From contig CAZEAY010000003.1 in assembly GCA_964510655.1 (NCBI GenBank), positions 18,924-82,923 on the forward strand: a DNA stretch of 64,000 nucleotides, read 5' to 3'. Positions 350 to 47,834 of the stretch are shown here, one piece after another; positions within the stretch are counted from its first letter, which is position 1; each line of letters opens with the position of its first letter. Below the pieces are notes generated by a model, which saw nothing but the letters and a program-made list of their open reading frames with translations, did no database searches and had not been told where the DNA came from. Position numbers and translations under genes: made by a program. This DNA comes from an uncultured Candidatus Saccharibacteria bacterium. GTDB taxonomy: Bacteria; Patescibacteriota; Minisyncoccia; Phycocordibacterales; XYD1-FULL-46-19.

Positions 350-1372
350 ATGTTAAAGAAACCCAAAAAGGAAAAGGAGGAAAAAGCCACAGGTAGTGGC
401 ATAGAAGATACTATCAAAGCTCTCCAGAGCCGTTTTGGGGATGAGGCAATAATGAAATTGGGAGATAAACCTAAGGTTGGAGTAAACGCCATTCCAACCA
501 GCTCTCTTGGTTTAGACATGGCCTTAGGAGTAGGTGGACTCCCCCGCGGACGAATAATTGAAATTTATGGACCAGAATCGTCCGGCAAAACAACTTTAGC
601 CTTACATGTTATTGCTGAGGCTCAGAAAAAAGGCGGGATCTGTGCTTTTATTGACGCTGAACATGCCTTGGATCCTGAATATTCCAAGAGACTGGGAGTA
701 AAAGTAGATGAATTATTAATTTCCCAGCCAGACTACGGAGAACAGGCTTTGGAAATTTCTGAAAGTTTGGTTCGTTCAGGCAAGGTAGATGTTGTAGTCA
801 TCGACTCGGTAGCTGCCCTTACTCCAAAAGATGAAATTGAGGGCGACGTTGGCGACTATCACGTTGGCAAACAAGCTCGCCTAATGTCTCAAGCCTTAAG
901 AAAAATGACTGGAATTGTTGATAAATCCAAAACTCTGGTAATCTTTATTAACCAACTTCGGATGCAAATTGGGGTAATGTTTGGTAATCCCGAGACCACC
1001 CCAGGAGGAAAAGCTCTTAAGTTTTACGCCTCGGTCCGATTAGACGTTCGCCGTATCGCCCAGATTAAAAAAGGCGAAGAAGTGGTTGGAGGACGGGTTC
1101 GGGTAAAGATCGCTAAAAATAAAGTAGCAGCCCCTTTTAAAACAGCTGAGTTTGATATTCTTTATAACGAAGGTATCTCCCCTGAAGGTGAAATAGTGGC
1201 TCTGGGTGAGAAATACAATATTATCCAAAAATCTGGTTCAAGCTATGCCTACGGTGATACAAAACTGGGACGTGGCTATGATGCCACCAGGACTTATCTA
1301 AAAGAAAACCCTAAGGTTCAAGCGGAGATCGTTAAGCAAGTCAAAGCCAAAATGGCCGAAGAGCAAGTCTAA
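350..1372 (+). CDS. recA: recombinase RecA
   Basis: 340 aa with Walker [13 protein letters not shown] and the RecA core blocks ([40 protein letters not shown]). No SD upstream. Confidence 0.95.
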
Positions 1373-1388
1373 ATTTTTAACAAAAAAA

Positions 1389-1413
1389 GGGCCGACGTCT
1401 GGCGTCAGGCCCC
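1389..1413. terminator. bidirectional rho-independent terminator between recA and the GC-rich small gene
   Basis: GGGCCGACG..CGTCAGGCCC stem, preceded by AAAAAAA on plus, which is a T7 run on the minus strand. Confidence 0.6.
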
Positions 1414-1430
1414 AAATTCACCGTGATGGT

Positions 1431-1661
1431 TTATTGAAAGTGGCAATTGCCACGAAGAGCTACCATGGGGCCACCACCCAAGATGGGCACCCCATCAGGC
1501 TGATGATTCAGCCTTTCGAGACTCTCCTCTCCCCGAGTGTCAAGACATTGAGGCAAAGAGAGTTCGATCTGGCGGGATAAAGACGGCGTACCATAGCCGT
1601 CTGTCATGCGGGACCCAATAGCTCTTACCACTGGAGTCCTTTTGAAAGCGTCCGGCTGCAT
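1431..1661 (-). CDS. GC-rich small protein P1 (76 aa), hypothetical; paralog of 16394..16579
   Basis: ATG at 1659-1661 is preceded by GGAGG (1670-1674) with an 8-nt spacer. The ORF runs to just before the terminator hairpin. This ~320-nt stretch is visibly GC-rich against AT-rich flanks. Its protein tail (LSLPQ...PDGVPILGGGPMVAL) resembles the tail of the 16394..16579 product. Confidence 0.5.
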   Translation of the reverse strand: MQPDAFKRTPVVRAIGSRMTDGYGTPSLSRQIELSLPQCLDTRGEESLERLNHQPDGVPILGGGPMVALRGNCHFQ

Positions 1662-1858
1662 AACAACATCCTCCATCTCCAACGTGAATATGAGAGTTTG
1701 AGGATAACTCTCATAAGACAATACCACACAATAAAATTGTACACAAATAAAAAACTTGAAATTCCAGTCCGATTGGGTTAGACTTGTGGGGTCCTTTAGA
1801 AATAATAAAAATGGAGTTTGTATCGACACGATACAAATCACCGCGATTTAAATATATC

Positions 1859-2425
1859 ATGCTTGAATACAACGAGATAAAACCAAGAAAATGTATCATT
1901 ATGGAGGGTCAACCCTATGAAGTAGTAACCTCTCATGTCTTTCGCAAACAACAGCGTAAACCCGTTAATGCTACTAAGTTAAAAAATTTGATCACTGGCA
2001 AAGTGATGGAATATTCTTTCCACCAAAGTGAGAAAGCGGAAGAAGCAGAATTAGACAGTCGAAAAATAAAATATTTATATGAAAATCGTGGCGAACTATG
2101 GTTTTCAGAAGAAAAAGACCCTAGCAAACGGTTCAAAATGACCCACGAAGAAGTCGGCGAAGATATTAAATTCGTCAAACAAAACAGTTTAGTGGAATTG
2201 GTCTCATTCCGAGATAAAATTATGGGTATCCGCGTCCCCATTAAGGTTGAGCTAAAGGTAACAGAGGCCGCCGCCGCCGTAAAAGGAAACACTATTCAAG
2301 GTGGGACAAAACAAGTAACCTTGGAAACTGGAACCACCCTGAATGTTCCGATGTTTGTTAATGAAGGAGATGTTATTTCGGTCAACACCGAAACCGGAGA
2401 ATACGTAGAGCGGGTAAATAAATAG
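1859..2425 (+). CDS. efp: translation elongation factor P
   Basis: MLEYNEIKPRKCIIMEGQPYEVV...LITGKV... aligns to the EF-P N-terminus (..DGEPYEVV..) and has the three-domain length. I chose the internal ATG at 1859 by alignment to EF-P. Confidence 0.85.
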   Translation: MLEYNEIKPRKCIIMEGQPYEVVTSHVFRKQQRKPVNATKLKNLITGKVMEYSFHQSEKAEEAELDSRKIKYLYENRGELWFSEEKDPSKRFKMTHEEVGEDIKFVKQNSLVELVSFRDKIMGIRVPIKVELKVTEAAAAVKGNTIQGGTKQVTLETGTTLNVPMFVNEGDVISVNTETGEYVERVNK

Positions 2426-2443: not shown

Positions 2444-2468
2444 ACCGGGTCATCCCGGTTTTTTATTT
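2444..2468 (+). terminator. efp terminator
   Basis: ACCGGG-tcat-CCCGGT hairpin followed by TTTTTTATTTT. Confidence 0.55.
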
Positions 2469-2666
2469 TCTAAAAAATAAAAAAAGACTAACAATTAGAA
2501 AAATGACTCCAACTAATATTATTGGCTGCAATTGAGAAAAACTGGAGACATTGCTAGAGTCAAGGTGAAAATTTCTTAAAACATAGACACTCAAAAAAAG
2601 AAGCATCGATAACAAGAAAAAAACGATGGAGATAATCTTAATAAGCATGGGATTATTATATACCAA
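2463..2666 (-). CDS. possible small membrane protein (67 aa); doubtful
   Basis: Hydrophobic ORF with a TTG start directly abutting the rpsR terminator. No SD. It could be an artefact of AT-rich sequence. Confidence 0.2.
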   Translation of the reverse strand: MVYNNPMLIKIISIVFFLLSMLLFLSVYVLRNFHLDSSNVSSFSQLQPIILVGVIFLIVSLFLFFRK

Positions 2667-12716: not shown

Positions 12717-15700
12717 TTACAAATTATGAATTGAGATCCCAAAGAAAAGATCCCCGATCTTGGTCTCGCCCACACCGGTTTCTAATTCAATTTCAGCCGT
12801 ACCAGTCCCCCGTTTGATTTCCTCAATAAATTTCTTAACCAAGGTTTGTCCTGTTTCGTCGGTTATTATCTTTAAATTAATGATATCTCCCGGATTTAAA
12901 CCTGTTTTTTTACGCAGTTCCTGAATATTACGCATCAATTCGCGCATATCGCCTTCTTCTTTTAATTCTTGAGTAATACTCGTATCTAACCTAACTCCCG
13001 GAAGATCAGGGTCGGCATTTTTTTCAAAAATAACATTTTTAACATTGACTTCGTCTTTAATCAGCTCTTTCAAATGATTCCAATAATTTGGTTCATTCCC
13101 GTCATGTTTTATAATCAAGGCTGACAGTGGTTGTCGAACTTTTATACCATCCACATCTCTCGCCATAAGTCCCATTGAGGCAAATGATCGGGCAAAGCTC
13201 ATTCCAACAATAATATCTTGATCAAATTTCTCGGTGATTGGCCAGCTTTCCAAGTGTACGCTTTCCTTAACTCCCTCAGTTTTACGATAGATATCCTCGG
13301 CAATAAACGGAGTAAATGGCGCCATCATCTTAGCCAAACTATTTAAAATAGTTTTCATTGTAAAAATCGCCCAATTTTTGTCATCAATATCACCTGATTT
13401 AAAACGATCACGTGATCGACGTAAGTACCAATTAGATAAGTCATCGATAAATTCATCAATCGGACGTACAGCACGATCAATTTCATATTTATCCATTGCC
13501 TCCGTTACTTTAGTTACAAGCTCGCCGAATCTGGCATTAATCCAAATATCTAAAACGTTTTCAGATTGACCTTGAACGTCGGCTAATGTTTTTGGGGCAT
13601 ACATCTCATAAAAAGAGTACACATTATTGAGACGCATAATAATTTTACGATAAATTTCTCCTACCCCTTTTTCGGAAAAATTCAAATCCTCTGCTCTCAT
13701 AACTGGAGAGGCCAATAAATAAAAACGTAAGGCATCGGCTCCAAATTTTTCCACCACACTCATTGGATCAGGGTAATTTTTGAGACTCTTAGACATCTTC
13801 TGGCCATCCTCAGCCAAAACCAGTCCATTGACGACTACATTCTTATAACTAGTTTTACCGAACAGAGCGGTGGACAAAACCAACATAGAATAAAACCAAC
13901 CCCGAGTTTGATCGAGACCCTCGGCAATAAAATCGGCTGGAAACCCATTCCCATCACTAGGATCAAAATCTTTCAAATCACTAAAGGGATAATGAGCCTG
14001 ACCATAAGGCATGGAGCCAGATTCAAACCAACAATCAAAAACATCGGGTACTCTAGTCATTTCCCCACCACAACCACAAGCAAACTTTATTTGATCAATA
14101 TACGGACGATGTAGATCAAGATCATAGAGAGTATTGTGTGGTAAAAAAGAAAAATCTAATGACTGAATTTCTGCATTCTTGAAACGTGACCCCCAATGAG
14201 ACATTTTTTCAATCTCTCGACTATTATTACCCGCAGCAGCTGTCATCATAAAAAACAAAGGCAAGCTGTGGCTAACAATCAAAATGTTTTTACCAGTATA
14301 TTTTTCATTCAACTCATACAAGACTTCCCCCATTCGTTTCTTAACCTCTAAACAAGATTCTCCGTTGGTTTGAGATTTAAACAATTTTTCATGTTTAGAG
14401 TTAAAATGCTTATCATACTCTACCCAATTTCCCTCATCAGCATCACCAACATTATATTCTCCCAGGCGGGCATCAAAAATAATTTTATCTTGAGACAAAC
14501 CAATTGTTTGAGCGACGAGCTCAGCCGTTTCTTTGGTTCGAACAAAAGGCGAAGAAATGATTACTTCAATGTTAGATCCCTTTAGACTTTCGGCAGAAGA
14601 AATAACCTGTTCTTTGCCCTCAGTCGTAAGATGATAGTTTTTGCCTAACTTACAATCAATTGTATCGGTCAAATTATTCTCAGACTGACCGTGACGCATT
14701 AAGAAGTAACGATTATTTTTTGTCTGCAAATTATCCTTCAATTCTTGAATGCTCCCAACCACCTTAATTTGTTTACAATCTTCACAGCGCCAAACTGGAA
14801 TTGGAGCGCCCCAAAAACGAGTCCGAGAAATCGCCCAATCACGAGCTCCTTCTAGCCATTTACCAAAACGACCCTCTTTAATATGTTCTGGGACCCAAGA
14901 AATAGTTTTATTGTTCGCCACCAAATCATCACGAAATTTAGTCACCTCAACAAACCACGAAGAAGCGGCGTAATTTAACAATGGAGTACCACAACGCCAA
15001 CAGTGCGGGTAAGAATGAGAAATTTTTTCTTTCGCAAATAAAATTCCTTTAGCCGCCAGGTATTTAATAATTTTTACATCCATCGCTTGGTTTTCCACCG
15101 TAGATGGTCCATCATCTTCTAATCCCGGAGCACTTTTAGGTTTTACTAATTCCCCCACCCAATCGATAACTTCCGGTTTAAACCGGCCATCCATTCCGAC
15201 ATGCTGAATAAATGGTAGTTTTTCTTTTTGACCCAACTTCATATCATCTTCTCCAAAAGCGGGAGCAATGTGTACTACCCCCGTACCATCTTCAGTCGTC
15301 ACAAAATCAGCACCATAAATTTTCCAACCATTTTCCCGATTTTTTATTGTCTCATCAGTAAGGTAATAATCAAAAGCAGGTTGATATTTTTTACCCACTA
15401 AAGTACTACCCTTAAAAGTATCCTCAATAGTATAATCAGAGGCATTACTAAAATTTTTCTCCAAAAGATCTTTAGCGAGAATATAAGAAAGATGATCGTC
15501 GCTATTATTCATTCCAATTTTGACGTAATCAATCTCAGGGTTAACAGCCAAAGCCACATTACCCGGCAAAGTCCAAGGAGTAGTTGTCCAAGCTAAAATC
15601 GAAGTTCCCGGCTCATCAACTAGACCAAACTTAACCACCACCGAGAGATCGGTGATATCTTTATACCCCTGATTCACTTCAAAATTAGATAGAGTAGTCT

Positions 15701-16256
15701 CACAGCGCGGACAAATCTGCATTGATTTATAGCCTTCATAAATCAGACCTTTGTTGTGGAGGTTTTTAAAGATATTCATTACCGACTCGGAATAAGAAGC
15801 ATCCATCGTCCGATAATCGTTTTCCATATCAATGAAACGACCCAATCGTGGCACAATTTGTTTCCAGTCCTCTACATACTCTTGGACCATCTCACGAGCC
15901 TTTTCGTTAAACTTTTCAATACCGTAATCTTCAATATCTTTTTTGGATTTCAAACCGAGTTCTTTTTCCACTAGGTTTTCGGCTGGCAAACCATGACAAT
16001 CCCAGCCCCAACGTCGGCGGACAAAATTACCCTTCATCGTCCAATAGCGAGGAATCACATCTTTCATTGTTCCCCCAACAATATGTCCATAGTGAGGAGT
16101 GCCAGTCGCAAAAGGTGGTCCATCATAAAAGACGTATTCTTTTGCCCCTTTAGTCGTCTCCAGAGTTTTTTCAAAAATTTTATTATCTTGCCAAAACTTT
16201 AAAATTTCTTCCTCTTTCCGAGAGACATCACTTTTATTATTTTTCTCCTCTGTCAT
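12717..16256 (-). CDS. ileS: isoleucyl-tRNA synthetase (type 2) with an inserted histidine-phosphatase domain
   Basis: PHYGH (HIGH), the editing-domain block TTPWTLPGN and KMSKS are present. An extra ~190 aa block (aa ~515-705) carries the RHG..R..E..H histidine-phosphatase signature. Confidence 0.95.
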   Translation of the reverse strand: MTEEKNNKSDVSRKEEEILKFWQDNKIFEKTLETTKGAKEYVFYDGPPFATGTPHYGHIVGGTMKDVIPRYWTMKGNFVRRRWGWDCHGLPAENLVEKELGLKSKKDIEDYGIEKFNEKAREMVQEYVEDWKQIVPRLGRFIDMENDYRTMDASYSESVMNIFKNLHNKGLIYEGYKSMQICPRCETTLSNFEVNQGYKDITDLSVVVKFGLVDEPGTSILAWTTTPWTLPGNVALAVNPEIDYVKIGMNNSDDHLSYILAKDLLEKNFSNASDYTIEDTFKGSTLVGKKYQPAFDYYLTDETIKNRENGWKIYGADFVTTEDGTGVVHIAPAFGEDDMKLGQKEKLPFIQHVGMDGRFKPEVIDWVGELVKPKSAPGLEDDGPSTVENQAMDVKIIKYLAAKGILFAKEKISHSYPHCWRCGTPLLNYAASSWFVEVTKFRDDLVANNKTISWVPEHIKEGRFGKWLEGARDWAISRTRFWGAPIPVWRCEDCKQIKVVGSIQELKDNLQTKNNRYFLMRHGQSENNLTDTIDCKLGKNYHLTTEGKEQVISSAESLKGSNIEVIISSPFVRTKETAELVAQTIGLSQDKIIFDARLGEYNVGDADEGNWVEYDKHFNSKHEKLFKSQTNGESCLEVKKRMGEVLYELNEKYTGKNILIVSHSLPLFFMMTAAAGNNSREIEKMSHWGSRFKNAEIQSLDFSFLPHNTLYDLDLHRPYIDQIKFACGCGGEMTRVPDVFDCWFESGSMPYGQAHYPFSDLKDFDPSDGNGFPADFIAEGLDQTRGWFYSMLVLSTALFGKTSYKNVVVNGLVLAEDGQKMSKSLKNYPDPMSVVEKFGADALRFYLLASPVMRAEDLNFSEKGVGEIYRKIIMRLNNVYSFYEMYAPKTLADVQGQSENVLDIWINARFGELVTKVTEAMDKYEIDRAVRPIDEFIDDLSNWYLRRSRDRFKSGDIDDKNWAIFTMKTILNSLAKMMAPFTPFIAEDIYRKTEGVKESVHLESWPITEKFDQDIIVGMSFARSFASMGLMARDVDGIKVRQPLSALIIKHDGNEPNYWNHLKELIKDEVNVKNVIFEKNADPDLPGVRLDTSITQELKEEGDMRELMRNIQELRKKTGLNPGDIINLKIITDETGQTLVKKFIEEIKRGTGTAEIELETGVGETKIGDLFFGISIHNL

Positions 16257-16309: not shown

Positions 16310-16338
16310 TTGACAGATAAAATAAAAGAGGCTAAAGT
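16310..16338 (+). promoter_or_regulatory. sigma70-like promoter for the GC-rich small gene P2
   Basis: TTGACA (16310-16315), 17-nt spacer, TAAAGT (16333-16338). Confidence 0.4.
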
Positions 16339-16393
16339 TATAAAGGATTAATTACATCCAAACTATTGTAGGTAGTAGCAGGAGGCTCTTTCC

Positions 16394-16579
16394 ATGTTGC
16401 GCAACGCTCAAGCAGGACAGAAGAAGGCGGCGATAAAACCACTCGAATTCAAACCACGCAGACCAGACCCCTTTGGTTGGGGTGATCCGAGACCAGCCAT
16501 CAAATTGGGGCTCCCCAATGAAGACGGCATCCCCGTAAATTCTGGCCGGCAAATGCAGGCCATTGAAATCGATTACTAA
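16394..16579 (+). CDS. GC-rich small protein P2 (61 aa), hypothetical; paralog of 1431..1661
   Basis: AGGAGG (16380-16385) + 8 nt + ATG. The ORF stops 20 nt before a GC-rich hairpin and T-run. Composition is foreign to the surrounding sequence. Shares the I-[EK]-L-x-L-P and DG[IV]P[IV]..G..M.A[LI] motifs with P1. Confidence 0.5.
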   Translation: MLRNAQAGQKKAAIKPLEFKPRRPDPFGWGDPRPAIKLGLPNEDGIPVNSGRQMQAIEIDY

Positions 16580-16599: not shown

Positions 16600-16639
16600 G
16601 CCCCGTGATCCTGTAAGGATCCCGGGGCCTTACTTTTTT
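16600..16639. terminator. bidirectional terminator (P2 and argS)
   Basis: GCCCCGTGATCC-tgta-GGATCCCGGGGC hairpin followed by CTTACTTTTTT on plus. A U-rich tract also follows on the minus strand. Confidence 0.6.
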
Positions 16640-16641
16640 AG

Positions 16642-18330
16642 CTACATCTTTGACAGCGGTTTAAGACCCAACAATACTAGTCCATTTCTTAAAACTTGAC
16701 CAACAGCCCGAGTTAATCCAACTCGATAAGGAGAGCTAGCCTCCAGACTTACAACTTGATGTTCAATATAATAAAAACTGAAAGCACTCGCTAACTCATA
16801 TAAATAAGTAGCAATATGATGGGGAGCATATTCCAAACAGGCATATTCCACGACCTCGGGGAAACGATAAAGAAGTTTTTCGACTGTAGTCATTTCATCT
16901 TCTGGTCGAGACAAATTGGATTTTATCCCCTCTTTTTCCGCTTTAGCTAAAATAGATTGAGTGCGTGCAAAAGCATACTGTAGATATGGACCAGAGTTAC
17001 CAGATAAATTTAATGTCTCATCCCAATCAAAAACAATATTAGCCCGACTATCACGTTTTAAATCGTTATATTTAAGTGCCCCAATACCAATATCGGAAGC
17101 TGTTTCAAGATTAAACTTTCCAGCTCGCGTCACCGCTTCAGCAATAACATCTTCCAACCAAATGACATTACCTTTGCGGGTACTCATTTTCCCATCGAGA
17201 AAGCGATATAAACCATGTGAGACATGAACTCGTTGTCCATCTTTAAACCAACCGAGCATTTTCTCAGTCTCATAAAGTTGCCTCATGTAAGTTTCTTGTT
17301 CAGAACCAACCTCATTAACAATAATCAAATTGTCACCATATTTTTCTTTCCGCTCAAGATCGGCCCCCAGATCACGAGTAGCATAAATCGAAGTTCCGTC
17401 ACCCTTACGAACAATCATTGGTGGCAATTTTTTTTCATCAGCAAAAAAGACCACTTCTGCCCCCTCACTCTCCTTCATCAAACCCTTATCAGTTAATTCC
17501 TGATAAACTCGAGAAACTTTGGGAATATAGGTACTCTCCCCTAAAGTGGTGTCAAAAGTTATTCCCAGCTGTTGATAAATTTTATTGAATTCAAACAATG
17601 ATAAATTGACGCAGCTTTGCCAAAGTTCTTTAGCGGAAGAATCACCTTTCTCTAATTTTAAAAACTCTGCCCGTGCCTCTTCTTCAAGTTCTGGATTCTT
17701 TTCCGCCTCGTCATGGAATTTCACATACAAAGAAACAAGTTCTTTCACTGGGTTCTCGCTTTTTCCAATCTGATTGATGTCCCCCCACTTTTTAATGGCC
17801 ACCATTTGTTTACCAAACTGTGTCCCCCAATCCCCGAGATGGTTATCGCGAATAACCTCAAACCCTGAAAAAGATAAAATATTGGCCACCGCATCACCAA
17901 TAATCGTTGATCTTAAGTGTCCAATTGAAAAAGGTTTAGCAATATTAGGAGAAGAATATTCGACTAATACTTTTTGATCTTTTTTATCTCCGCGACCAAA
18001 GTTATCACCCTGATCAAGAATAAAACCAATTTGTTTAACAAAAAACTCTCTACTTAAATAAAAATTTAAAAAACCTGGTCCAGCCACTTCCACCCGATCA
18101 ATTTTTTCATTTTTCAATTTCAAAAGCTCCTCTTTCATCTTTAGAGCAAGGTCCTTAGCTGACAAACCATTAGCTGGTCCAAACTTTAGCGCAAAGTTAC
18201 TGGAATAATCCCCAAAATTTAAATCAGTAGGATGTTCTAAAGAAATATTTTCCACCAAAAAACTAAGGTTTAAAGCCTTAGCCGCCTGTCCAAGCAGACT
18301 CCGTAATTCGTTCCTAATATCATTAGCCAT
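16642..18330 (-). CDS. argS: arginyl-tRNA synthetase
   Basis: N-terminal Arg_tRNA_synt_N-like region, class-I catalytic core and C-terminal DALR-type anticodon-binding region. Confidence 0.9.
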   Translation of the reverse strand: MANDIRNELRSLLGQAAKALNLSFLVENISLEHPTDLNFGDYSSNFALKFGPANGLSAKDLALKMKEELLKLKNEKIDRVEVAGPGFLNFYLSREFFVKQIGFILDQGDNFGRGDKKDQKVLVEYSSPNIAKPFSIGHLRSTIIGDAVANILSFSGFEVIRDNHLGDWGTQFGKQMVAIKKWGDINQIGKSENPVKELVSLYVKFHDEAEKNPELEEEARAEFLKLEKGDSSAKELWQSCVNLSLFEFNKIYQQLGITFDTTLGESTYIPKVSRVYQELTDKGLMKESEGAEVVFFADEKKLPPMIVRKGDGTSIYATRDLGADLERKEKYGDNLIIVNEVGSEQETYMRQLYETEKMLGWFKDGQRVHVSHGLYRFLDGKMSTRKGNVIWLEDVIAEAVTRAGKFNLETASDIGIGALKYNDLKRDSRANIVFDWDETLNLSGNSGPYLQYAFARTQSILAKAEKEGIKSNLSRPEDEMTTVEKLLYRFPEVVEYACLEYAPHHIATYLYELASAFSFYYIEHQVVSLEASSPYRVGLTRAVGQVLRNGLVLLGLKPLSKM

Positions 18331-27418: not shown

Positions 27419-27808
27419 ATGAAAAAGACCAAGGCCGTGGTTGTTGGTGTTTCGGCCCTAAATAAACACCTCCAAGCCCTGCAGGACTCGAGAAACCACG
27501 ATTACGAAAAAAATCGTCAGCGTGGTGAAGTTATCATCCGAGCCGCCACGGGCAATCCCCTCGTCTGGCGAGAACTCAAGGTGAACCAAGAGGCTCTCAC
27601 ACGACTAATCAGGGAGACCGCCAAAAGACGAGTCATCGGACTTTTGAGCTATTTGGAAACGAACAATAACATTCCAGCTGAATACCGCCAAGCGGACAGC
27701 CGTGAGATTTTACATATTATGGAAATGGAGAAACTAACCTATGGTGATGTCGGAAAAACCGAAGCAAGTTTCCTGGCTGTGGTTCGACACAAGATCCACC
27801 ACCAATAA
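27419..27808 (+). CDS. GC-richer hypothetical protein (129 aa) with strong SD
   Basis: AAGGAGAGAGGA just upstream of the ATG, and an ORF visibly more GC-rich than its neighbours. Followed by a 7-bp stem hairpin and T-run (27826-27870). Confidence 0.45.
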   Translation: MKKTKAVVVGVSALNKHLQALQDSRNHDYEKNRQRGEVIIRAATGNPLVWRELKVNQEALTRLIRETAKRRVIGLLSYLETNNNIPAEYRQADSREILHIMEMEKLTYGDVGKTEASFLAVVRHKIHHQ

Positions 27809-29224: not shown

Positions 29225-29536
29225 TCACCGATGACGATGTTTGCCAAAGAAATCTTGTGAATAAAGATCAGGTGCAGGCACCAATCCTCGCAAGAAATCC
29301 GGCTGAGAAGTCTCGATGCGGTGGTGGGGCTGAGGAGCCACAAGAATGGCAGTCCCTTTAGGTAAAGCAGCAGCCTTGGAAGAGGCACGGAATGTTCCGA
29401 GACTGTCTGCTGGCCGGGTTCCCCAATGCCGAAAACGTACCATGTTACAGGCCTGGGCCTCAGACACCGCCTGAGCCTGACCAATAAAAACATCATTCAA
29501 GTACACCTCCCAAGTCAAAACCGGGCGCTTGGCCAT
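29225..29536 (-). CDS. GC-rich hypothetical protein (103 aa) with consensus SD and promoter
   Basis: AAGGAGG + 5 nt + ATG (29534-29536). The ORF is visibly GC-rich. No family recognised. Confidence 0.5.
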   Translation of the reverse strand: MAKRPVLTWEVYLNDVFIGQAQAVSEAQACNMVRFRHWGTRPADSLGTFRASSKAAALPKGTAILVAPQPHHRIETSQPDFLRGLVPAPDLYSQDFFGKHRHR

Positions 29537-40712: not shown

Positions 40713-41096
40713 TCAGAAAATCAAGATGGGTGGTTCGTGGCGATTTCTGAATTTTCTTAAACGCGCCAATCTTTCCCACCTCTTTTTTTCTCGAAACTTC
40801 TCCTTTGATGTGCGTGGAAATCTGTCTTCCATCACCATAAGTTGTGGCCAAACGGCCCGAGTGGAATAAAGGCGAAACTTTGCCATATTCCACTGACGAC
40901 GGTTAACAATAAAGCACAGGGTAAGAGCAGAGAGCTTTTCTGCTTCAGATTCATCTGGATTGAGACTTCCTCTGATCGGTGGCTTCGGCCTGCCCGCATA
41001 ATAACAGCAACAGGGACAGATTTTTTTGTCGTCAGAGGTTATCTTCTTAAGTTCCCTAAGGACTTCAAAAAAAGAGTCCTTTCTTAACTCTTCCAT
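40713..41096 (-). CDS. GC-richer hypothetical Cys-cluster protein (127 aa) with strong SD
   Basis: AAGGAGG + 5 nt + ATG (41094-41096). Contains CPCCC and a basic C-terminus. Lies immediately downstream of tRNA-Lys. Confidence 0.45.
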   Translation of the reverse strand: MEELRKDSFFEVLRELKKITSDDKKICPCCCYYAGRPKPPIRGSLNPDESEAEKLSALTLCFIVNRRQWNMAKFRLYSTRAVWPQLMVMEDRFPRTSKEKFREKKRWERLARLRKFRNRHEPPILIF

Positions 41097-47299: not shown

Positions 47300-47349
47300 T
47301 TATATTCAATCTTAGCACAAAAGAAGGTTGGTAAAATAGATATAAAAAA

Positions 47350-47392
47350 ATACCCCGAAGCCGTAAACGACTTCGGGGTAAAACATCAATAG
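47350..47392 (-). terminator. terminator of the GC-rich lipoprotein gene
   Basis: CCCCGAAG..CTTCGGGG 8-bp stem followed on the minus strand by TATTTTTTTA. Confidence 0.55.
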
Positions 47393-47405
47393 TCAACTTT
47401 CTCAA

Positions 47406-47834
47406 CTAGAACCAGCTGCTATGCCGACGCTTGGACAGGAGGCGGGTCCAACTTTTAGCCTCCCGAGAGATGCTCTGGGCAGTCCTGAGGGCATCGCGCC
47501 CCTCCGACTGAGTCTGGCGACGCAAGGCAATCTCACGGCGAACCTCGCCGTCAAGCTCATGCTGAGTCTGGCGGCGATTCTCCCGATCATCGCGCGACCA
47601 CTCTCTGTCTGCGCGATCCATTTCGATGGCCTGACGATGTGCGTCACGGGACTGTTCCCGATAGCCAGCATACACAGCGGCCGCCTGACCCCGACGCGGA
47701 GTGGTGTTGACTGCCCAGTCAGCACCATTATCGGAAGGGACATAAACTCGGCGGGCGGTAGTCTGGGGGGCTGTAACGCACCCCGTAACCATCAACAAGA
47801 CAAAGAGAAGCAGGCAAACGACAAAATTCTTCAT
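47406..47834 (-). CDS. GC-rich lipoprotein with Arg/Asp/Glu-rich repeats (142 aa)
   Basis: Signal peptide plus lipobox LMVTG|C. The body is rich in RxQ/RDD/RExRR repeats. Very GC-rich relative to its flanks. GAGG ~9 nt before the ATG. Confidence 0.55.
   Translation of the reverse strand: MKNFVVCLLLFVLLMVTGCVTAPQTTARRVYVPSDNGADWAVNTTPRRGQAAAVYAGYREQSRDAHRQAIEMDRADREWSRDDRENRRQTQHELDGEVRREIALRRQTQSEGRDALRTAQSISREAKSWTRLLSKRRHSSWF

Follow-up and report, generated by a model that had tools for sequence, protein, structure and literature searches.

In a Patescibacteria (Parcubacteria-like) genome, two small GC-rich open reading frames, P1 and P2, each occupy an interval between housekeeping genes, and we consider it likely that they are two separate small-protein genes, unrelated to each other, in gaps of fast-changing content. 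On protein-level comparison with a single orthologue, P1 is protein-coding and has been under purifying selection since its split from the lineage of that relative (L164); P2 is quite probably protein-coding as well. Both are lineage-restricted bacterial ORFans that annotation missed, members of an ordinary class with a mildly unusual composition and position. A preliminary description of this DNA had presented them as a paralogous pair. Paralogy is not supported by the comparisons reported below, which detect no relationship of either protein to the other or to any known family.

Setting and expression signals of P1 and P2

The window analysed here (the whole stretch of 64,000 nt, with 39% GC) is dense in housekeeping genes. 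P1 lies on the minus strand in the order recA, P1, efp, and P2 on the plus strand in the order argS, P2, ileS; as each is opposite in strand to both of its neighbours, each is convergent with one of them and divergent from the other (Table 1). The P1 and P2 regions form islands of 0.52-0.54 GC within the 39% GC genome, and GC3 in the two frames exceeds the host-gene value by about 20 points.

The signals around the two frames suggest that each would be transcribed as an unannotated monocistronic gene from a promoter of its own, with a strong ribosome-binding site and an intrinsic terminator, P1 giving rise to a 76-aa protein and P2, probably, to a basic protein of 61 aa. The sequence features listed in the preliminary description are indeed present: reading frames of these two lengths, GGAGG + 8 nt + ATG at both starts, the TTGACA-17-TAAAGT promoter of P2, terminators some 20 nt past the stops (17 nt from the stop codon to the GC-rich hairpin and T-run in P1, 20 nt to the hairpin in P2) and the peptide blocks IELSLPQ/IKLGLPN and PDGVPILGGGPMVAL/EDGIPVNSGRQMQAI. 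The nucleotide likeness claimed just after the ATG is there, in that ACGCT recurs at the same offset and AGGA one base off, but it is at chance level.

The putative P1 promoter was read by eye and falls under the threshold of the promoter scanner. The GGAGG-spacer-start motif is weak as evidence for a gene because it is common away from gene starts: the window holds 31 instances, only about 4 of them at the starts of clear long genes. Peptides predicted from the two loci include TPVVR, AIGSR, QIELSLPQCLDTR and LGLPNEDGIPVNSGR.

Table 1 Features of the P1 and P2 loci and their neighbouring genes (positions in the window).
Feature	Position	Strand	Description
recA	350-1372	+	P1 neighbour
P1 intrinsic terminator	1382-1413	-	GGGGCC...GGCCC hairpin + T7, adjoins recA stop codon; from sequence and scanner
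P1 coding sequence	1431-1661	-	76 aa + stop; hydrophilic small protein
P1 Shine-Dalgarno GGAGG	1670-1674	-	8 nt 5' of ATG
P1 leader hairpin (5')	1689-1715	-	AUGAGAGUU-loop-AACUCUCAU, 10 bp, predicted fold
P1 putative promoter	1718-1746	-	TTGTGT (1746-1741), 17-nt spacer, TGG-TATTGT extended -10 (hexamer 1723-1718)
efp	1859-2425	+	P1 neighbour
ileS	12717-16256	-	P2 neighbour
P2 promoter	16310-16338	+	TTGACA-17-TAAAGT, 10/12 consensus positions
P2 Shine-Dalgarno GGAGG	16381-16385	+	8 nt 5' of ATG
P2 coding sequence (probable)	16394-16579	+	61 aa + stop; pI 9.7, predicted coil
P2 terminator hairpin + T-run	16600-16639	+	Just beyond stop codon of convergent argS; from fold
argS	16642-18330	-	P2 neighbour

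P1 is conserved as a protein

Relatives were found through 90% clusters of SSB, S18 and GlyRS together with a GlyRS homologue search. Their flanking genes are only 73-79% identical to the window at the DNA level, so that neutral sites are saturated and only protein-level signal can survive. In L164, whose recA shares 79% DNA identity with that of the window, the efp-recA gap contains an 81-aa ORF on the same strand as P1 (L164:2095-2340; hereafter L164o), with AAGGAG 6 nt before its ATG and a terminator. P1 is absent from the output of gene callers, with no entry in a collection of 15 billion proteins, and L164o is uncalled too.

The two proteins align over nearly their full length with 38-45% identity. 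Their Smith-Waterman score of 97 (z=15.3) was equalled in 0 of 5000 shuffles and belongs to frame 0/0, the 17 other frame and strand combinations giving at most 43, and blastn found no DNA similarity longer than 8 nt. Differences fall in excess on third codon positions (30/31/47 by position), with pS at 0.75 (saturated) and pN at 0.42. As the similarity is confined to the protein and to one frame, and RNA structure is not conserved (see below), the peptide is the conserved object at P1. The earlier view that both loci are coding rather than RNA thus gains firm support for P1, from a frame-specific comparison with synonymous bias, and weaker support for P2, from a counterpart in L166 with p=0.006.

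An AGAG(A)GUU...ACUCU hairpin starts the leaders in the recA-efp gap of the window (1689-1715, minus strand), L164 (L164:2041-2056) and L165 (L165:11045-11066). None of the three is significant singly, and the L165 ORF is unrelated to P1. Beyond efp, the efp/rpsR interval of the window holds an AT-rich 67-aa ORF (2463-2666, minus strand) with two strongly hydrophobic segments, possibly a small membrane protein.

Orphan status of P1 and P2

P1 had no match among 5.8 billion protein clusters, and P2 matched only itself in the same collection, in a search that was word-indexed only. An exhaustive HMMER search with P1 against 1.84 billion representatives returned only two giant repeat proteins (P0134 and P0135), which we rejected as repeat-amplified chance matches: L164o, the true orthologue, shows no similarity to the repeat (z=-0.3), and profile-profile comparison gave a probability of 5.8%. 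Searches of Pfam, NCBIfam, PHROGs, PADLOC and PDB with P1 and P2 gave no match, in agreement with the preliminary description, which had recognized no known small ribosomal protein or toxin family in either protein. The further copies that it proposed to look for are absent from the window, where neither P1 nor P2 has a second copy or repeat matching over at least 15 nt. Exact-protein look-ups of neighbour genes led only to short contigs of the same strain.

Among 174 related loci, members of the P1 and P2 families occur only in L164 and L166. The synteny up1-recA-efp-rpsR-ssb is kept in GTDB and metagenome relatives, among which no P1-like or P2-like DNA or peptide was found (GlyRS at most 66% identical in the GTDB relatives, EF-P at most 86% in the metagenome relatives); the 80 GlyRS-anchored GTDB loci showed no similarity and are too distant to inform. 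With P1 and P2, a Patescibacteria genome would gain two small genes absent from its annotation, of which P1 is validated by comparative evidence, and the case illustrates that ORFs of such atypical composition are passed over by gene callers.

Variable gaps between conserved genes

Across relatives the recA-efp gap is between 5 nt and 3.6 kb long. It may be empty, or be occupied by P1 or L164o, by other small ORFs, by an ECF sigma/anti-sigma pair or by other genes. The argS-ileS gap can be as short as 3 nt (L168) and as long as 2.2 kb. Both are slots whose content turns over rapidly among related Patescibacteria (Parcubacteria-like). In three relatives the recA-efp gap has a small ORF with a Shine-Dalgarno site and a terminator (L165o, L084o and L085o), unrelated to P1; the argS-ileS gaps of L172, L173 and L174 hold differing small ORFs unrelated to P2. 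All slot ORFs are hydrophilic, with GC3 of 0.47-0.62. In most hosts the long genes have a GC3 some 15-20 points lower (host GC3 0.31-0.52); L084o is not above its host.

We considered whether these ORFs are diverged members of the P1 and P2 families; pairwise and profile tests did not support this for L165o, L084o, L085o, L172o, L173o1, L173o2 or L174o. Motifs picked by eye across P1, P2, L084o and L085o (PKP-W, I-x-L-x-L-P and D-G-I-P) were not significant. Descent from a decayed slot gene, such as the ECF sigma pair, was likewise rejected, as no signal emerged when the spacers were searched by tblastn with 10,232 ORFs as queries (best E ~1e-4, before correction for about 10,000 queries). No template/variable-type repeats for P1 or P2 were found within the window.

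Other contents of these gaps were observed in passing. In more distant relatives (L108, L114, L117, L120, L123, L126 and many others), the recA-efp gap carries, on the P1 strand, an ECF-type sigma factor (about 190 aa) and, after it, a membrane protein (about 110 aa) resembling an anti-sigma factor; in other relatives it carries a DEAD-like helicase of about 650 aa. Two short recA-efp gaps, in L087 (L087:3832-4000) and L089 (L089:3799-4000), have no small ORF and carry long inverted repeats that are nested, for example GGAGCGGAGCGA...TCGCTCCGCT with CCCCGCCCTCAC...GTGAGGGCGGGG in L087 and, in L089, repeats of about 30 nt on either side of the gap. In L174, a reverse-transcriptase gene (RVT_1; L174:22-1113) lies directly upstream of argS, beside the argS-ileS slot.

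High GC3, origin and likely products

The high GC and GC3 of P1 and P2 may stem from mRNA selection or from foreign origin. Several features would suit small genes that are not native and fast-evolving but foreign cassettes of promoter, ORF and terminator, repeatedly acquired from a GC-richer donor or a mobile element and inserted at permissive gaps, an explanation compatible with their being coding: GC and GC3 lie 15-20 points above host genes at both slots and in several genomes, close relatives differ in slot contents, and the window has other GC-rich orphans with a strong Shine-Dalgarno site, such as the lipoprotein gene at 47406-47834. However, phage similarity is absent, at the DNA level for the P1 and P2 spacers and among PHROGs, and neither flanking repeats nor second copies accompany the genes. 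P1 and L164o both keep their high GC3 although synonymous sites are saturated, which points to maintenance rather than recent import. We regard foreign cassettes as possible but rather doubtful.

The lipoprotein gene (47406-47834, minus strand) coincides with a sharp island of 62-63% GC and encodes a 142-aa orphan with a lipoprotein signal peptide and lipobox (MKNFVVCLLLFVLLMVTGC...); it has a strong terminator at about 47345-47408 and gave no Pfam or PHROG match. Three further ORFs, at 29225-29536 (minus), 40713-41096 (minus) and 27419-27808 (plus), are raised in GC3 (0.45-0.53, the genome mean being 0.34) and belong to no Pfam family. Two of these three have a full GGAGG Shine-Dalgarno site, as P1 and P2 do, and the three may represent a compositional class of accessory or foreign genes.

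It seems distinctly unlikely to us that the recA/efp and argS/ileS junctions of Parcubacteria-like genomes are dedicated fast-turnover slots for GC-rich small-protein cassettes with actively maintained GC3. Such a cassette may consist of a promoter, a 5' hairpin, a strong Shine-Dalgarno site, an ORF of 60-80 aa and a terminator. Were the idea true, it would point to mRNA selection or to specialised accessory proteins (for example, episymbiont host-interaction factors), not to random orphans. Variable slots between conserved genes with unrelated GC-rich small ORFs, if general, would bear on the way in which reduced symbiont genomes turn over their accessory genes.

If P1 and P2 are two separate small-protein genes, as we prefer to read them, their products would be soluble, largely disordered proteins that bind a protein or nucleic-acid partner, and would be neither enzymes nor membrane toxins. 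We infer this from their hydrophilic composition (GRAVY -0.46 for P1 and -0.77 for P2) and from the lack of a transmembrane segment or Cys motif; composition analysis found no hydrophobic segment in either, and P2 is basic and predicted to be coil. Single-sequence AF2 models were of low confidence or coil (coil for P2) and were uninformative.

P2 is probably translated

The closest relative is L166, with a GlyRS 90% identical to that of the window. Its argS-ileS gap contains a 62-aa ORF (hereafter L166o) on the strand and in the position of P2, with a GGAGG and a terminator. P2 and this one counterpart align with a Smith-Waterman score of 44 (z=3.7, p=0.006) and have the core P[FY]GWG[DE] in common; the proposed frame gives the score of 44 and other frames at most 37. 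A z of 3.7 is not much above the z of about 2.5 for the rejected pairing of P1 with P2, and the similarity gains its weight mainly from shared position, strand and length. Gene calling has also picked up P2 on two Logan contigs, both of them matching the window at 100% identity. That P2 is quite probably coding is our estimate from the L166 similarity and the frame result, taken with canonical signals and a lack of RNA structure.

If P2 is untranslated, the locus would be a short sRNA without structure, or else a GC-rich spacer with a bidirectional argS terminator in which an ORF arose by chance. At 52% GC, a 61-codon ORF would arise by chance with a probability of about 5% per frame, GGAGG-start motifs are frequent away from gene starts, the support for orthology is modest (p=0.006) and several relatives have no ORF in the argS-ileS gap. 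We nevertheless judge this alternative unlikely, as P2 has a full set of signals at canonical spacing (a promoter matching 10/12 positions, GGAGG-8 nt-ATG, and a stop 20 nt before the terminator), and its best similarity to L166 falls in the proposed frame. The closest relative also keeps an ORF of equal length with the same signals despite saturated neutral divergence, the genes flanking P2 having about 73% nucleotide identity with those of that relative.

In this lineage the neighbouring ileS encodes 1179-1212 aa. Between the catalytic parts of its product lies an inserted histidine-phosphatase / phosphoglycerate-mutase-like domain (PF00300, motif RHGQSENN); this insertion in ileS (12717-16256, minus strand, in the window) is kept in L165, L166 and L168-L174.

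P1 and P2 are not detectably related

The proposed paralogy of P1 and P2 starts from a marginal similarity. Their best BLASTP segment spans 14 aa, with E=0.028 in a single comparison, and Smith-Waterman alignment against shuffles gave p=0.017-0.027 for a comparison that was chosen post hoc. A DNA cross-match was not found. The synonymous-biased divergence suggested as a check is absent, as differences in the P1-P2 alignment are spread flatly over codon positions (27/21/28), with pS at 0.63 and pN at 0.50.

Adding one orthologue per side lost the signal rather than strengthening it. Between {P1, L164o} and {P2, L166o}, hhalign gave a probability of 0.1%, and cross-family pairs gave p=0.4-0.9. 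In calibrated profile tests, the best result was the P1-family profile against P2, at 0.5 bits and p=0.02 among 16 tests; the reciprocal tests gave p=0.31-0.37. The blocks common to P1 and P2 are kept in L164o, among them I-x-L-x-L-P (I-K-L-G-L-P-N in P2), which is absent from the L166 counterpart of P2. The near-identical expression signals, which had been offered as a mark of paralogy, are not diagnostic, as a Shine-Dalgarno site, an ATG and a terminator are usual for any monocistronic bacterial gene and the GGAGG-start motif is so frequent in the window.

A duplication within the genome or lineage, from which P1 and P2 would descend as diverged members of one small-protein family, is therefore very unlikely. 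The marginal pairwise and profile values and the likeness in size, composition, GC3 and gene architecture would agree with such a duplication, but hhalign between the two-member families, the cross-family pairs and the reciprocal profile tests speak against it, synonymous bias is lacking and the LGLPN-type block is missing from the counterpart of P2. The case is a clean example of a plausible-looking paralogous pair that vanishes once one orthologue is added per side.

Strong folding of the P1 transcript is lineage-specific

P1 folds with z of -3.8 to -5.3 (transcript -5.1, ORF by itself -3.8), where coding windows of this genome (n=38) give a background of -0.24+/-0.95 with a minimum of -2.4; the folding of P2 is ordinary (z=-0.4), so that the two loci are also unlike in this respect. 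Given the strong folding of its transcript, an RNA role for P1 needed serious consideration. The P1 mRNA (1431-1712, minus strand) forms near-perfect hairpins in series, with folding far beyond that of shuffles and a structure that is not conserved. Codon-anchored RNAalifold on P1 and L164o gave z=-1.4, no better than column shuffles, and 39% of the P1 MFE pairs can form at the homologous L164o columns, which is the chance level. The strong folding of P1 is lineage-specific.

Covariance models of Rfam 15 had no match at P1 or P2 at gathering or permissive thresholds; the only matches there were terminator-like or chance, with E of 0.2-10, far under gathering scores, and ARAGORN found nothing at either locus. 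The check for a known structured RNA, which the preliminary description had named as a way to overturn its coding interpretation, thus identified no family at either locus. RNase P-like motifs seen by eye in P1 were dismissed, as their order is wrong and they are without covariance-model support. That P1 is chiefly a structured small RNA or a dual-function RNA, with its ORF secondary, is very unlikely: the transcript and the ORF fold beyond the coding minimum, the minus strand of the locus folds better than the plus strand and the L164 orthologue is also somewhat structured (z=-2.6), but no Rfam family appears even at E<=10, conservation with L164 is purely protein-level and frame-specific, and the structure is not kept in the L164 orthologue.

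Comparison with known systems

With type I toxin and small membrane-protein genes, P1 and P2 share their size, their monocistronic layout and their orientation opposite to their neighbours. Unlike type I toxins, they have no hydrophobic segment, and an antisense RNA partner is not evident.

A further comparison is with small regulatory RNAs and with dual-function sRNAs, such as SgrS/SgrT and RNAIII/hld, that contain an embedded small ORF. P1 and P2 resemble them as short stand-alone units with their own promoter and terminator, and the P1 transcript is highly structured, but P1 differs in that it conserves the peptide and not the structure or the sequence, and in having no Rfam family.

The two small genes that we propose are closest in kind to the taxonomically restricted small genes (ORFans) of bacteria, which are often missed by annotation (review, PMC12315717; survey, PMC11293555). 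As in that class, P1 and P2 are short, hydrophilic, probably disordered, rare and uncalled in their source genome; they have no homologues outside a narrow lineage, and P1 bears signs of purifying selection. Gut-microbiome orphans match the GC of their host, with de novo or phage-derived ones lower (PMC11293555), whereas P1 and P2 have GC and GC3 far above host genes. P1 and P2 also stand apart from ORFans in their position, in two specific and highly variable gaps between conserved housekeeping genes.
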